Below, in pieces: positions 28,898-63,242 of a stretch of DNA of 64,000 nucleotides; the first letter of the stretch is position 1, and the number at the start of each line of letters is the position of its first letter. The stretch is from NCBI GenBank assembly GCA_016700035.1, contig CP064998.1, positions 135,021-199,020 on the forward strand, written 5' to 3'. Both the position numbers and the translations under genes were made by a program. The stretch is from a bacterium. GTDB lineage: Bacteria; Patescibacteriota; Saccharimonadia; CAILAD01; GCA-016700035. The notes under the pieces were generated by a model. The model had not been told where the DNA came from, ran no database searches, and worked only from the letters and a program-made list of their open reading frames with translations.

Positions 28898-29282
28898 GCA
28901 AGTAAGCAGGTGACCGCTCCATATTTTTGGAGAGGAAAGTCCGAACAGCTTGAGTACAGGATGGTTGCTAACGGCAACCCGGGGTAACCCGAGGGAAAGT
29001 GCCACAGAGACAATACCGCCAGATGCATGTCTGGCAATGGTGAAAAGAGGGCGGTAAGAGCGCCCAGCTTGTATCGGTGACGATACAAGGAGGTAAACCC
29101 CATCCGCTGCAAGGCTTATGGATCCCGATTTTATCAAAGTGTACTCACTTTTCTCGGCTCGAGAGGGATATGTCGCATGATTGCGGGAGAACTGCAACAC
29201 TGTATTTTTTACAAGAGATAGATGGTCATCACCCTATAAGATAGGCTTATAGGGGACAGAATTCGGCTTATCGCTTGCTTGT
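28898..29282 (+). ncRNA. rnpB: RNase P RNA, bacterial type A
   Basis: conserved blocks GAGGAAAGUCCG (P4 5'), GGGAAAGUGCCACAGAGACAAUACCGCC, GGUGAAAAGAGGGCGGUAAGAGCGCCCAGC, ACAGAAUUCGGCUUAUCG (P4 3'); extended -10 TGGTAAAAT upstream; hairpin terminator 29283..29315. Confidence 0.85.
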
Positions 29283-29343
29283 CCGCAAAAGTTACTATGC
29301 TAGTAGTTTTTGCGGAAGCTTTTAACCTGATACAATAGAGGAA

Positions 29344-42701: not shown

Positions 42702-43105
42702 GGGGCTGACATTAGCTTCGACAGAGTGATCATTGACAGGCATATCTCGCAAGCCGGGTTGAGATGAACGTTATCCGTCTCATATCAATAAGTGTAAACT
42801 CACTTGTTAGCAAGGTACGCAGTGCTTTTGTAGCACCCGCTCTTGCACCAGCTTTCGCTTAATTCGTGGAAGCCATCCTGTAAGCTCATACTAGCTAGAG
42901 CTTCAATGGGTGTCATATCTTTGCTAGTTGCTTCAAGGCGTGTTCTGTGTCCGCGTTTTGACTAAGACTTTAGATATCGGGAAAGGCGTGAGGATTGGTT
43001 CGTTTTTGTCTCGCTGTCTTTCTAAAACAAGTTAAGCGAACTAAGCTTGTAGTGAGTATGCGTGGCACACACTGGACGAGGGTGCGATTCCCTCCAGCTC
43101 CACCA
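42702..43105 (+). ncRNA. ssrA: tmRNA (SsrA)
   Basis: 5' GGGGCUGACAUUAGCUUCGACAG and 3' GGACGAGGGUGCGAUUCCCUCCAGCUCCACCA (tRNA-Ala-like T-arm/acceptor); internal ORF ending ...GCACCCGCUCUUGCACCAGCUUUCGCUUAA (tag about ...APALAPAFA*). Confidence 0.8.
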
Positions 43106-59880: not shown

Positions 59881-60963
59881 ATGGAAGTTTTGATTATAGT
59901 TTTACTGGTAGGGATCTTTATTGCATTGGCCTTTCTTGTTTTTCGCAATTTAGGTATGGGGTCTGCTAAGTCTAGCGATCTTGATACTAGTGCGGTTCAG
60001 CTTTTAAAACAAGATCTTCAGAATATGCAACAGCTCTTAGTCCAGACGCAATCCAATATGCAGGATAGATTAGATAAGAATAATACAAATGTACAGGAAA
60101 GTGTGCATCAACAGATGAAGCAGTCATCTGAGATTATTCGTCAAGTAACCGAACGATTAACGCAATTGGATGAAACCAATAGGCGCGTTGTGGATATTAC
60201 ATCGGAATTAAAGACCTTACAGAATGTTCTGCAGAACCCAAAGCAGAGGGGTGTATTGGGGGAGTACTATTTATCGCAAGTTTTAGAGAATGTATTACCT
60301 CCAACGCAGTATAAATTACAATATGGCTTTAAGAATGGTGATATTGTAGATGCTGTTATCTTTCTAGATAAAGGTAAGATCTTGCCGGTTGATTCAAAAT
60401 TTAGTCTGGAGAACTATAATCGAATTATAGAGCGTAAAGATCCTGGTGAGCGTGAAAAATTAATACGGCAGTTCAAGCAGGATCTAAAAAGTAGAATTGA
60501 TGAAACATCTAAGTATATTAGGCCACATGAGGGTACAATGGATTTTGCTTTTATGTTCATTCCCTCGGAGGCGATATATTATGATTTGCTGGTTAATAAG
60601 GTAGGAACAGCCAATACTACTGCGCGCGATCTAATCGAGTATGCTTTCCGAGATAAGCATGTGATTATTGTGTCGCCAACTTCATTTATGGCATACCTAC
60701 AGACGGTCTTGCAGGGCTTACGGTCGCTACAAATAGAGGAGCAAGCCAGAGACATTCAGGAGAGAGTTGGCTTGCTTGCGCGTCACTTAAAGAGTTACGA
60801 TACATATATGCAAAAGATGGGGAATTCACTTTCAACGACAGTTGGGCACTATAATACGGCGTATAAAGAGTTCAAGAAGGTAGATAAGGATGTCGTTAAG
60901 ATTGCTCAAACTGAACAGGTAATTGAACCATTGCTAGTTGATAAGCCAACAACAGATGATTAA
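59881..60963 (+). CDS. rmuC: DNA recombination protein RmuC-like (N-terminal TM + coiled coil, C-terminal RmuC domain)
   Basis: Gln-rich coiled coil; MDFAFMFIPSEAIYYDLL matches the RmuC core. Confidence 0.65.
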   Translation: MEVLIIVLLVGIFIALAFLVFRNLGMGSAKSSDLDTSAVQLLKQDLQNMQQLLVQTQSNMQDRLDKNNTNVQESVHQQMKQSSEIIRQVTERLTQLDETNRRVVDITSELKTLQNVLQNPKQRGVLGEYYLSQVLENVLPPTQYKLQYGFKNGDIVDAVIFLDKGKILPVDSKFSLENYNRIIERKDPGEREKLIRQFKQDLKSRIDETSKYIRPHEGTMDFAFMFIPSEAIYYDLLVNKVGTANTTARDLIEYAFRDKHVIIVSPTSFMAYLQTVLQGLRSLQIEEQARDIQERVGLLARHLKSYDTYMQKMGNSLSTTVGHYNTAYKEFKKVDKDVVKIAQTEQVIEPLLVDKPTTDD

Positions 60964-60975
60964 AGGGGATTTTTT

Positions 60976-61968
60976 ATGAAGAAGCGAATACTATCAGGTA
61001 TTAAGCCAACCGGAGATGTGCATCTGGGAGGATATTTAGGGGCAATGCGTGAGTGGCCTAAATTTCAGTCTCCTGATAATGAGGTTTTTTATTTTATTGC
61101 TGACTTGCATGCCCTAAATATTCGCCCCAGTGCCGATGAATTGCGCAGTAAGACCTATGATTTGGTGGCTTGGCTTCTTGCACTAGGTATTGATAGTGAG
61201 AATAATTCGATATACTTACAGTCTCAGGTTCCAGAGCATAGTGAGTTGTGTTGGTTGCTAAACAATTTTGTAACTATGGGGGAGCTCTCCAGGATGACTC
61301 AGTATAAAGATAAGGCCAGTAAGAATGGCTCAGAAGGACAGTTGGTGGCGTTATTTACTTACCCTGTATTGATGGCGGCAGATATCTTGCTCTATGATGC
61401 CGATGAAGTGCCAGTTGGTGCAGACCAGACCCAGCATGTGGAGCTGACGCGCGATATTGCCCAGCGCTTTAATGGAATATATGGCAGTGAGTCGCTAAAG
61501 TTACCTAAGTTTACGAATCCTAGTCATTCAGCTCGAGTTATGATGCTCGATGATCCGACTAGCAAGATGAGTAAGAGTGAGGGTGGGGATGGTTGTGTGT
61601 ACCTATCAGACTCGGAAGACGTAATCAGCCGTAAATTTAGCCGTGCTGTAACGGATTCTGAATCTTCTGTGAGATTTGATAAGGAGAATAAGCCAGGGGT
61701 AAGTAACTTACTGGAGATATTGGCATCGGTTAATGGAGAAAGTATTGAATTACTTGAAGAAAAGTTTTCTGGATCTGGCTATGGAGAATTAAAGCAGGCA
61801 GTTGCACAGGCCGTTTTGACAGAAATATTGCCTCTCCAGAAGGAGTATCGCAAGCTACGTGCGGATGAGGGGCATTTAGATACTATATTGCATAGAGGTA
61901 GAGAAAGAGTTGCTCCGCTTGCCCAGTACAAATTGGCTCAACTCAAGTCTATCATTGGACTAGTGTAA
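60976..61968 (+). CDS. trpS: tryptophanyl-tRNA synthetase
   Basis: ILSGIKPTGDVHLGGYLGA (HIGH-type), KMSKSEG (KMSKS). Confidence 0.9.
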   Translation: MKKRILSGIKPTGDVHLGGYLGAMREWPKFQSPDNEVFYFIADLHALNIRPSADELRSKTYDLVAWLLALGIDSENNSIYLQSQVPEHSELCWLLNNFVTMGELSRMTQYKDKASKNGSEGQLVALFTYPVLMAADILLYDADEVPVGADQTQHVELTRDIAQRFNGIYGSESLKLPKFTNPSHSARVMMLDDPTSKMSKSEGGDGCVYLSDSEDVISRKFSRAVTDSESSVRFDKENKPGVSNLLEILASVNGESIELLEEKFSGSGYGELKQAVAQAVLTEILPLQKEYRKLRADEGHLDTILHRGRERVAPLAQYKLAQLKSIIGLV

Positions 61969-62019
61969 AAAATACAATACTCTTTTACAGAGTAGAGATG
62001 ATAAAAATCATAAAATATA

Positions 62020-62048
62020 TTGACAAAGCATAAGGAGTTTGATAAACT
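62020..62048 (+). promoter_or_regulatory. sigma70-like promoter TTGACA-17-TAAACT immediately after trpS
   Basis: perfect -35, 17-bp spacer, -10 with T1/A2/T6. Confidence 0.45.
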
Positions 62049-62054
62049 AGAGTC

Positions 62055-62594
62055 AATCTAGTTCATTTAAAACCAAAAACAAAAACAAAAACCAAGTAAC
62101 ATTTTTCCCATAAAACTTTGTAAGTCGCTTGGTCTCCATAAAGGCGACTTACTTGTTTTGTGAACAGTAGGGTAACTCCGACCTGTAGACATCCCCCTTG
62201 TCTCGGGTCGGGCTTCCCCTACTGTTCTAGGGTGCCTCATCGAGAGAGGCGAATCATCCCCGACAGATAAATCCTTGTTAAAGCTAAGATAGGGTAGGTC
62301 ACCGACTTGTACTATCACCAAAGCTTTATAGATAACCAGCCAAGCCTACAAGGCAAAGTTGGTTAACAGAGACTTGTCTAGACGGATGGTAGGGAAATAG
62401 GCTAGACAAACAAAAGTGTACCTTATCTCGAAAAAAGTCAGCCTAAACTTGGATAGCTAGGCTTAAATAAGCTTAGATACCCGTATATCGGGGCAGCACG
62501 TGCCAATTGAATCTTTCTCTTTAGGGCAGATGTGACTGCCCCGTAACCAATTACTTATTTTAGAGATCACCCATTTGTTAGGGTGATTTTTTGT
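62055..62594 (+). ncRNA. candidate about 540-nt structured non-coding RNA of unknown class (promoter to intrinsic terminator, no ORF of 60 aa or more on + strand)
   Basis: multiple perfect long hairpins: GTAAGTCGC/GCGACTTAC (62120..62152), GAACAGTAGGG/CCCTACTGTTC (62162..62227) enclosing CCGACC/GGTCGG, CGGGGCAG/CTGCCCCG (62488..62543); ends at terminator 62566..62594. Confidence 0.4.
62566..62594 (+). terminator. intrinsic terminator GATCACCC-atttgtta-GGGTGATC... followed by TTTTTT
   Basis: 7-8 bp GC-containing stem + U-run on + strand only. Confidence 0.6.
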
Positions 62595-62807
62595 TAGGGA
62601 ATGATTATTCATGAAAAGACTTCGGCTGATTGCGATATTAAGTAGAAACTGTTTGGTATTGAGTGGAAATATCAAACAGTTAAATGACGAGTCGTATAAG
62701 AAAGTAGGTCAGTATAATGAATAAAAAAAGTAGTCGATAGAAAATTCCAAATACTGTAAATAAAATTGGTATTCAATATTATATAATTTGTATTCAAATA
62801 ATCTACT

Positions 62808-63242
62808 GTGGAAAAACTGTCGAAAAATAGCGATAATAGTAATAGTATGCGTGATGCACCCCACCGACAGCTTGCCCTCTATATTTCGGTAACGATTTTT
62901 GCTTTACTGCTCTCGTCTAGCGTAGTGGGCTTCTTGCTGCTTACTACATCACCTAGGGATATTGGTAGCTTAGGGGTGACCATTTGGTTTATTGCACTAT
63001 TCATACTAGTAGTATCTGGCTTGATTCTGCTGCGCTACGGCTTTTCTTACCGTAAACATCCTGAAGCTCAGGAGAGATTATTAATTTATAAATCTTCGAT
63101 TAGAAATAGTGTTGTGATGGGGCTATTTATTGTAATTGGTCTGGCAATGCAGAGTTTACGTATGTTGAATCTGGGTGATATACTGCTCTTCTTGCTAACT
63201 CTTGCTATAATTGAACTATATTTTCGAACAAAGAAGTCATGA
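62808..63242 (+). CDS. hypothetical integral membrane protein (4 TM)
   Basis: hydrophobic helices; stop overlaps pheS start. Confidence 0.5.
   Translation: MEKLSKNSDNSNSMRDAPHRQLALYISVTIFALLLSSSVVGFLLLTTSPRDIGSLGVTIWFIALFILVVSGLILLRYGFSYRKHPEAQERLLIYKSSIRNSVVMGLFIVIGLAMQSLRMLNLGDILLFLLTLAIIELYFRTKKS

Follow-up and report, generated by a model that had tools for sequence, protein, structure and literature searches.

The locus and its predicted transcription unit

We examined the gap that follows trpS in a 64-kb stretch of a Saccharimonadia genome (contig CP064998.1, positions 135,021 to 199,020; hereafter the window). Genes here run in the order rmuC (59881-60963), trpS (60976-61968), the gap, a small membrane open reading frame (ORF) and pheS (from 63242), and the closest public relatives of TrpS are all annotated as Saccharibacteria or Saccharimonadia. 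An earlier note, made from the sequence alone, had proposed that 62014-62600 is an ORF-free, highly structured region extending from promoter to terminator and that it encodes a novel non-coding RNA (ncRNA). Our analysis supports this proposal, and the sequence data make it very probable that the gap carries a member of a real, independently transcribed family of structured ncRNAs. The gap itself, put at 840 bp by the note, measures 839 bp (61969-62807) up to the listed GTG of the next gene, although that gene more likely starts at ATG 62847.

The proposed promoter, TTGACA-17-TAAACT on the plus strand (62020-62048), is present and agrees with consensus at 10 of 12 positions. It consists of a -35 element (TTGACA, 62020-62025), a 17-nt spacer and a -10 element (TAAACT, 62043-62048); the TG at 62040-62041, just ahead of the -10 element, makes it an extended -10 promoter, with transcription predicted to start near A62055. 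The pattern TTGAC-N13-17-TGnTAnnnT occurs at the equivalent place in 28/28 sequences scanned with a regular expression, and reading by eye places it in two more related loci, L099 and L049.

At the other end lies a plus-strand intrinsic terminator (62565-62592), in which GAUCACCC (62565-62572) and GGGUGAUU enclose the loop AUUUGUUA and are followed by a U run ending near 62592. On the minus strand the hairpin has no subsequent T run, so that the terminator works on the plus strand only, as the note had it. An automated terminator scan of the region returned 0 sites; the hairpin and U run are nonetheless clear in the sequence and in the folds. We treat the zero as an artefact, probably arising because A-U and G-U pairs can lengthen the stem into the T run, so that the T residues left over are too few for the rule of the scan. 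All homologues with sequence available end in a GC-rich hairpin followed by a U run, with stem sequences unrelated between members, and in several relatives trpS has its own terminator ahead of the RNA promoter. Conservation of both promoter and terminator thus shows the element as a putative transcription unit of its own. The predicted primary transcript (plus strand, 62055-62592, ~538 nt) is drawn from the geometry of promoter and terminator, the fold z-score given below and the full-length homologues. Base composition sets it apart, with a GC fraction of 0.43-0.48 in the RNA body, similar to coding DNA, versus 0.27-0.31 in the flanking AT-rich spacers. No plus-strand ORF of 60 aa or more was found, again in agreement with the note, the largest inside the element being 36-37 aa.

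We also observed a GUU after the terminator U run in 12-13 of 18 members (UUUUUUGUU at the RNA 3' ends; window 62587-62596). The 3' UUUUUUGUU could pair with the 5' AACAAAAA tail, and such pairing of the two ends appears in the centroid structure.

Conservation downstream of trpS

Homologues were sought by single-sequence and profile nhmmer searches, by a pattern scan of metagenomes and by synteny through TrpS homologues. Besides the window, the element lies directly 3' of trpS in 28 loci, representing 26 distinct sequences of 380-620 nt (L090 duplicates L086, and L091 duplicates L084). Every Saccharibacteria locus with sequence available has the element at this position, the version in L049 being reduced. 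The nhmmer searches recovered full-length homologues with E-values of 1e-190 to 1e-25, and in L001-L007 and L071 the element follows trpS directly. Nucleotide identity is ~79% in relatives whose TrpS is ~80% identical, and homologues remain recognizable down to a TrpS identity of ~50%.

The metagenome pattern TAGGGCAGATG-N4-14-CCCGTAACCA returned 8 loci, among which L082, L083, L084, L086 and L087 are real members. The other three (L081, L085 and L088) were rejected as chance matches within coding DNA. The pattern proved too clade-specific, and following synteny from TrpS homologues was the better approach. Contigs were found for eleven more TrpS homologues (75-53% identity), each with a gap of ~620-1000 nt after trpS, and the element is present in each of these loci for which DNA was available. 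The distant Saccharimonadia loci L008, L009, L010 and L022 share the synteny and keep an ORF-free gap of 620-650 nt, in which the same hairpin and 3' element, together with an own promoter and terminator, could be recognized by eye. The genome containing L022 is labelled Parcubacteria, yet it shares the Saccharimonadia synteny and the RNA. A reduced version of ~300 nt occupies this position in a Saccharibacteria genome of more distant kinship (L049:6020-6370). It retains the promoter, the A/C-rich tail CAAAAACAAAAAU, a weakly matching P6-like hairpin (22.5 bits) and a terminator; the hairpin P2 with its C5 loop is missing.

The element is single copy, has no mobile-element context and holds a fixed position between trpS and the small membrane ORF; a search of viral contigs for it gave no match. 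The family is vertically inherited in Saccharibacteria/Saccharimonadia. The strong conservation, together with the covariation described below, goes beyond the earlier note in revealing a class-level Saccharibacteria family at a fixed genomic position.

Fold stability and hairpin domains

The minimum free energy (MFE) of the plus strand is -189.9 kcal/mol versus -136.3 +/- 6.7 for dinucleotide shuffles (z = -8.0), and the minus strand gives z = -6.3, which bears out the high structure content that the note had claimed. All three of the long helices quoted there were found, corresponding to the stems that we call P1, P2 (the one nesting CCGACC/GGUCGG) and P6. The description of the opening stretch as poly-purine was mistaken, AAACCAAAAACAAAAACAAAAACC being A/C-rich.

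P2 (62162-62228) is a predicted hairpin of 27 bp that includes the quoted helix GAACAGUAGGG/CCCUACUGUUC and has the 7-nt apical loop UCCCCCU (62192-62198). The CCCCCUU at its apex (62193-62199) is invariant in every member. In a MAFFT alignment of 22 distinct sequences, pairing was preserved in 90.9% of cells for P2 versus 36-48% when the partner strand was slid, and 10 pairs were changed on both sides (for example, AGACA/UGUCU to AAAUA/UAUUU). A covariance model of P2 (R1) scored 92 bits on the plus strand versus 47.5 bits on the minus strand; this asymmetry of about twofold fixes the orientation as the plus strand. L099, held out of model building, scored 43.4 bits with R1 and has a new stem, AAGCA/UGCUU.

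P6 (62488-62550) behaves similarly. Its predicted strands are CGGGGCAG-CAC-G-UGCC and GGCA-GAU-GUG-A-CUGCCCCG, followed by UAACCA (62544-62549), and the internal loops and part of the apical region are conserved. Pairing was found in 93.1% of cells versus 30-50% with the partner slid, with 6 pairs changed on both sides. The P6 covariance model (R2) scored 81 bits, and the held-out L099 reached 52.6 bits with new compensations. Each RNA locus contains exactly one copy of R1 and one of R2; neither model matched in 25 trpS loci of other phyla or elsewhere in the 64-kb window. These comparisons show that the putative domains P2 and P6 are held by covariation.

The remaining local features were predicted around these two arms. 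The A/C-rich 5' tail UUAAAACCAAAAACAAAAACAAAAA (62067-62091) is unpaired in the MFE structure, and its core AAAACAAAAAC is conserved (invariant alignment columns A37-A46), L049 included. P1 (62120-62152) has the stem GUAAGUCGC/GCGACUUAC and a conserved loop starting CUUGGUCUC. Its stem varies with pairing kept (GUCGC/GCGAC, GCUAC/GUAGC, ACCGC/GCGGU, ACUGC/GCAGU, GCCCG/CGGGC) and the loop motif YUGGNCUC is conserved; the hairpin is absent in L097 and L098. P2 is followed by the joining segment J2/3 (UAGGG) and hairpin P3 (GCCUC-AUCGAGA-GAGGC; together 62228-62251), a position at which most lineages have a predicted hairpin of differing sequence. In P5 (62400-62443), GGCUAGAC and GUCAGCC close a large loop with an A/C-rich stretch and an RYACCUU motif (GUACCUU, 62418-62424); across members the stem changes (GCAGAC/GUCUGC, GAAGUAGU/ACUACUUC, GUAUCUC/GAGAUAC) and the loop motif is kept as GCACCUU or GUACCUU. 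P5b (62457-62476; CUAGGCUU-AAAU-AAGCUUAG) has compensated changes at alignment columns 458-477.

Long-range core and alternative pairing

Three long-range helices of the predicted fold connect these domains. Pa pairs CCAAGU (62092-62097) with ACUUGG (62447-62452), the latter inside the conserved CUUGGAUA, and is part of the MFE structure. The close group has CCAAGU(U)/(A)ACUUGG, L086 the compensated CCAAGCU/AGCUUGG, and the helix is longer in L007 (8 bp) and L087 (11 bp). Pb, also in the MFE structure, pairs UUUCCC (62104-62109) with GGGAAA (62392-62397), and its compensatory variants include GUUUCCC/GGGAAAC (L087), ACUUCCC/GGGAAGU (L093, L095), GCUUCC/GGAAGC (L006) and GCUUUCC/GGGAAGC (L094). 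P4, found in the single-sequence MFE, pairs AUCAUCC (62253-62259) with GGAUGGU (62384-62390). ACCAUUC/GAAUGGU in the L001-like subgroup versus (A/U)CAUCC/GGAUGG elsewhere amounts to an exchange of U-A for C-G, and AUCAUAC/GUAUGGU in L099 to one of C-G for A-U (read by eye).

The helix comparisons show Pa, Pb and P4 closing a modelled multi-helix core from which a variable insert would protrude; this closed core and the invariant C5 apical loop were not part of the earlier note. The insert (62260-62383) is enclosed by P4 and poorly conserved. From P2 to the 3' strand of P4, a stretch comprising P3, the P4 5' strand and the insert, relatives have ~12 to 225 nt. The junction element GGAUGGUAGGGAAA (62384-62397), in which a single A separates the 3' strands of P4 and Pb, is almost invariant. 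The conserved parts of the core further include the unpaired A/C-rich 5' tail, the long P2 arm with its C5 tip, the unpaired RYACCUU in the P5 loop and the P6 arm.

The P2 3' strand CCCUACUGUUC (62217-62227) is also complementary to the junction segment GGAUGGUAGGG (62384-62394) over 11 bp, in 23/23 sequences and with 96% canonical pairs. This alternative pairing would exclude both P2a and P4. It raises the possibility of a conformational switch that toggles between P2a plus P4 and the alternative helix, or of a ribozyme with the junction as its catalytic core. The alternative helix equals the score of P2a in a blind helix scan, and the junction has many invariant nucleotides. However, forcing the alternative pairing costs +12.8 kcal/mol in the window RNA, and where divergent members (L009, L008) differ in the P2 3' strand, the matching change lies in the 5' strand of P2 rather than in the junction. 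Both halves of the junction have covarying partners of their own, P4 and Pb, and no known ribozyme family matched. As the main fold the alternative pairing is disfavoured by its energy and by compensations that favour P2a, and a switching or catalytic RNA appears quite improbable.

Known RNA families and coding potential

To compare the element with known families we used the 4227 covariance models of Rfam 15, at gathering scores and then permissively at E<=10 for the window and E<=1 for divergent loci. At gathering scores no family matched in 62014-62600. Elsewhere in the window Rfam located full-length RNase P RNA (28898-29286) and tmRNA (42702-43105), both of which the note had placed outside the element, and five tRNAs. 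With E<=10 the window element gave only four matches at chance level, all far under threshold, the best being CyaR (21.7 bits versus a 47-bit threshold); the sub-threshold matches to CyaR (E 0.34) and RsaD (E 5.1) fall on the P1 region. With E<=1 no family was found on the element in L097, L098, L009, L022 or L049. The models of RNase P RNA, tmRNA, signal recognition particle (SRP) RNA and 6S RNA did not match at the element, nor did those of group I/II introns and known self-cleaving ribozymes; unlike an intron inserted in a host gene, the element lies between genes and has a promoter of its own. A literature search found no description of the RNA downstream of trpS. We place the element as a new family among the large orphan structured ncRNAs of bacteria, a category already known, and outside every described family.

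Two partial resemblances were considered and dropped. P6 recalls SRP domain IV (GCAGCC..GGCAGAUGA), with the likeness on opposite strands of the hairpin and no match to the SRP model. Motifs resembling the 16S 3' end (GUAGGGGAA, UUGGAU and CACCUCCUU) are not collinear, and pairing with a partner of its own accounts for each of them.

We also considered whether the region could be the degraded remnant of a coding gene or could encode a small protein on either strand, for instance in the 84-aa mechanical ORF on the minus strand at 62067-62321. A public gene call overlaps the homologous region in L091 (3378-3707, minus strand), where a 109-aa hypothetical protein is annotated opposite the RNA gene. 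However, strand, frame and extent of the ORFs vary among homologous regions, L097 has none, and the window ORFs inside the element have no Pfam match. Indels are not multiples of three, and substitutions follow base pairing, not codons. With no conserved ORF and no Pfam match the element is not a pseudogene, and we consider a coding origin scarcely credible. The L091 call and the 84-aa window ORF are probably both spurious, caused by an unannotated RNA. The note had named a known family, a degraded coding gene and a lack of conservation as the findings that would speak against its reading, and none of these was encountered.

The downstream operon and the adjacent membrane protein

A second promoter, TGGAAA-17-GATAAT (62809-62837), lies between the RNA and the small membrane ORF, with its -10 element ending 9 nt before ATG 62847. 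It is conserved in relatives, including the arrangement of GATAAT or CATAAT relative to the ATG. Given this position, the ORF probably starts at 62847 (131 aa, nearly leaderless) and not at GTG 62808. The AT-rich spacer from the RNA terminator to the ORF start measures ~60-250 nt. With its own promoter, the operon of membrane ORF and pheST starts independently of the RNA.

This arrangement bears on the possibility that the RNA is a cis-acting leader or attenuator, T-box-like or a riboswitch, that would control the membrane-ORF-pheS-pheT operon through regulated termination at 62565-62592. Like T-box leaders (RF00230), the RNA precedes an aminoacyl-tRNA synthetase operon, is oriented like it and has a terminator at its end, and the conserved UGGU in GGAUGGUAGGG superficially resembles the T-box bulge as generally known. 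T-boxes also exist in the lineage, as a T-box leader was detected below threshold at L022:3569-3764 (41.3 bits, E 7e-6, gathering score 93), upstream of another gene. This detection shows that the T-box model is sensitive in the lineage; on the element itself it gave no match (E<=10 in the window, E<=1 in the five divergent loci), and no other riboswitch matched in the window even at E<=10. Unlike in T-box leaders, no conserved antiterminator competing with the terminator was seen among the members, which vary in the linker from P6 to the terminator and have wholly different terminator hairpins. Together with the spacer and the conserved promoter that separate terminator and ORF, these divergent terminators speak against a cis leader or T-box. 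At one related locus the gene after the small ORF is purD instead of pheS (gene calls only). A cis-acting role is thus very unlikely, and we are fairly confident that the RNA acts in trans.

The small ORF is itself a constant neighbour. An ORF of 118-162 aa follows the gap in every locus whose sequence or gene calls extend past it, L049 included. Its products (window 62847-63242; L089:4047-4442) form a conserved family with four transmembrane segments (4-TM), without a family match in Pfam or NCBIfam, and have the invariant residues P36, G40, W47, R86, S103, D111, E123 and Y125 and the C-terminus ELYFRT.

This neighbourhood recalls OLE RNA, a structured ncRNA of ~600 nt that is restricted in lineage, forms a ribonucleoprotein (RNP) and is encoded beside the gene for a small multi-pass membrane protein, its biochemical function being unestablished (PMC9723947, PMC12054373). 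By analogy with OLE and OapA, the RNA could be part of a membrane-associated RNP with the adjacent 4-TM protein as its partner. Like OLE (RF01071; the OapA/OapB/OapC RNP), it is large, has many conserved unpaired nucleotides, is vertically inherited and adjoins a small multi-pass membrane protein gene. The ORF accompanies the RNA wherever it could be traced, in L049 and at the purD locus as well, and its family is conserved with invariant residues and no Pfam or NCBIfam match. Unlike OLE, the RNA occurs in Patescibacteria rather than Bacillota, has no sequence or structure match to OLE in Rfam, and has a promoter separate from that of the membrane ORF. Because gene order tends to be fixed in genomes as reduced as these, adjacency by itself says little in favour of such a complex, which we regard as unlikely.

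Possible function of the RNA

The invariant C5 loop suggests another possible mode of action, in which CCCCCUU would bind G-rich or Shine-Dalgarno (SD)-like segments of mRNAs and block their translation or alter their stability. C-rich loops of this kind (UCCC) are the paradigm of small RNA (sRNA) regulation by RsaE/RoxS and the RNAIII hairpins in Firmicutes, and RNAIII is similar in size to the ~540 nt considered here. The loop is unpaired on a covarying stem in all members, it resembles the 16S anti-Shine-Dalgarno CCUCCUU, and a second conserved unpaired pyrimidine motif, RYACCUU, is found in the P5 loop. The likeness to RsaE/RoxS and to RNAIII hairpins 7, 13 and 14 extends to an independent gene with promoter and terminator. 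However, the RNA has a single C5 loop in a far more elaborate molecule with a deeper-conserved core, it matched neither the RsaE nor the RNAIII model, and no target sites were found in the window. The complement AAGGGGG is not enriched in the 64 kb screened (6 versus 6.2 expected) and has no plus-strand site at a start codon, and the usual SD here, AAGGAG, mismatches the C5 loop. The AAGGGG SD of trpS (AAAGGGGA) is not conserved in relatives, for which reason we rejected an action of the loop on this neighbouring ribosome-binding site. Class-level conservation and an elaborate covarying core are also unusual for antisense sRNAs. A base-pairing regulator is therefore an alternative that we think unlikely.

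We instead favour a stable trans-acting RNA of the housekeeping type, which would serve as the scaffold or recognition subunit of an RNP. In such a particle the rigid P2 arm would display the invariant CCCCCUU loop, the 5' A/C-rich tail would remain single-stranded, and a partner, which may be a protein or a G-rich RNA segment, would make contact with the invariant unpaired elements. Vertical conservation at the level of the class, single copy, a strong promoter, a core with an insert and invariant unpaired nucleotides all favour a scaffold or recognition RNA over an antisense sRNA. The likeness to RNase P RNA, tmRNA, SRP RNA and 6S RNA lies in the strong promoter, the single copy, the core with lineage-specific inserts and the class-level conservation. 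Whereas 6S RNA forms a ~185-nt rod interrupted by a central bubble, the RNA measures 380-620 nt and has a branched fold, and it differs from SRP RNA by the lack of a domain IV. ROOL and GOLLD (PMC12286853, on oligomerization) are of the same size class, likewise combine an ornate fold of many helices with peripheral parts that vary, and are orphans in function too. Unlike these it has no Rfam match, no phage or tRNA-cluster context and no viral-contig match, and it is a single syntenic copy on the chromosome.

Several points weigh against the favoured reading. The ends of the transcript are inferred from sequence motifs, the fine structure modelled from P4 to P6 is uncertain, and support for Pb is weak in the L001-like subgroup. 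The covariation statistics were computed on 19-22 related sequences with kinship ignored, that is, not against a phylogeny-aware null such as that of R-scape, and the window has no excess of C-loop complements, as described above. Whether an RNP or structural housekeeping role should be preferred to simple antisense regulation thus appears evenly poised. We give about the same weight, neither for nor against, to the full proposal that the gap holds an undescribed structured ncRNA gene of ~540 nt (380-620 nt in relatives) whose product would have a trans-acting RNP or recognition role.

Few structured RNAs of bacteria are both large (>400 nt) and deeply conserved, and in the past those that are, such as RNase P, OLE, HEARO and ROOL/GOLLD, have proved to be ribozymes, RNP cores or unusual assemblies. 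Saccharibacteria are ultra-small symbionts that have shed many genes and have genomes of ~1 Mb. That a 0.5-kb RNA gene with a near-consensus promoter is kept at a fixed locus across class-level divergence in such reduced genomes argues for an important function. More speculatively, the family may be a new class of large ornate RNAs universal to a major Saccharibacteria lineage and with a core cellular function, as an OLE-like membrane RNP with the neighbouring 4-TM protein, or through catalysis or switching based on the invariant junction and the C5 loop. We think this rather doubtful; if true, ultra-reduced epibiont genomes would use RNA for a task that is left to proteins elsewhere. As a compact family whose two signature domains already serve as covariance models, it provides a handle for annotating Patescibacteria genomes, for searching metatranscriptomes and, should the few cultivable Saccharibacteria be carriers, for genetic work in them.

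Further observations in the spacer and in PheT

The spacer between the RNA and the membrane ORF contains repeated operator-like motifs (62726-62798) around TATAAT at 62782-62787, namely GGTATTCAAT (62768-62777), TGTATTCAAA (62789-62798) and AAAGTAGTCGA (62727-62737). Related motifs (GTGTTCA, GTATTCAA and AGTAGTCAA) recur in the same spacer of relatives. Further downstream, the PheT products of L091 (5333-), L094 (5313-) and L095 (5448-) are 941-949 aa long and have a precomputed NlpC/P60 (PF00877) match among the usual domains. A tRNA synthetase subunit with such a fusion or insertion would be unusual, and PheT of L097 (777 aa) is without it.

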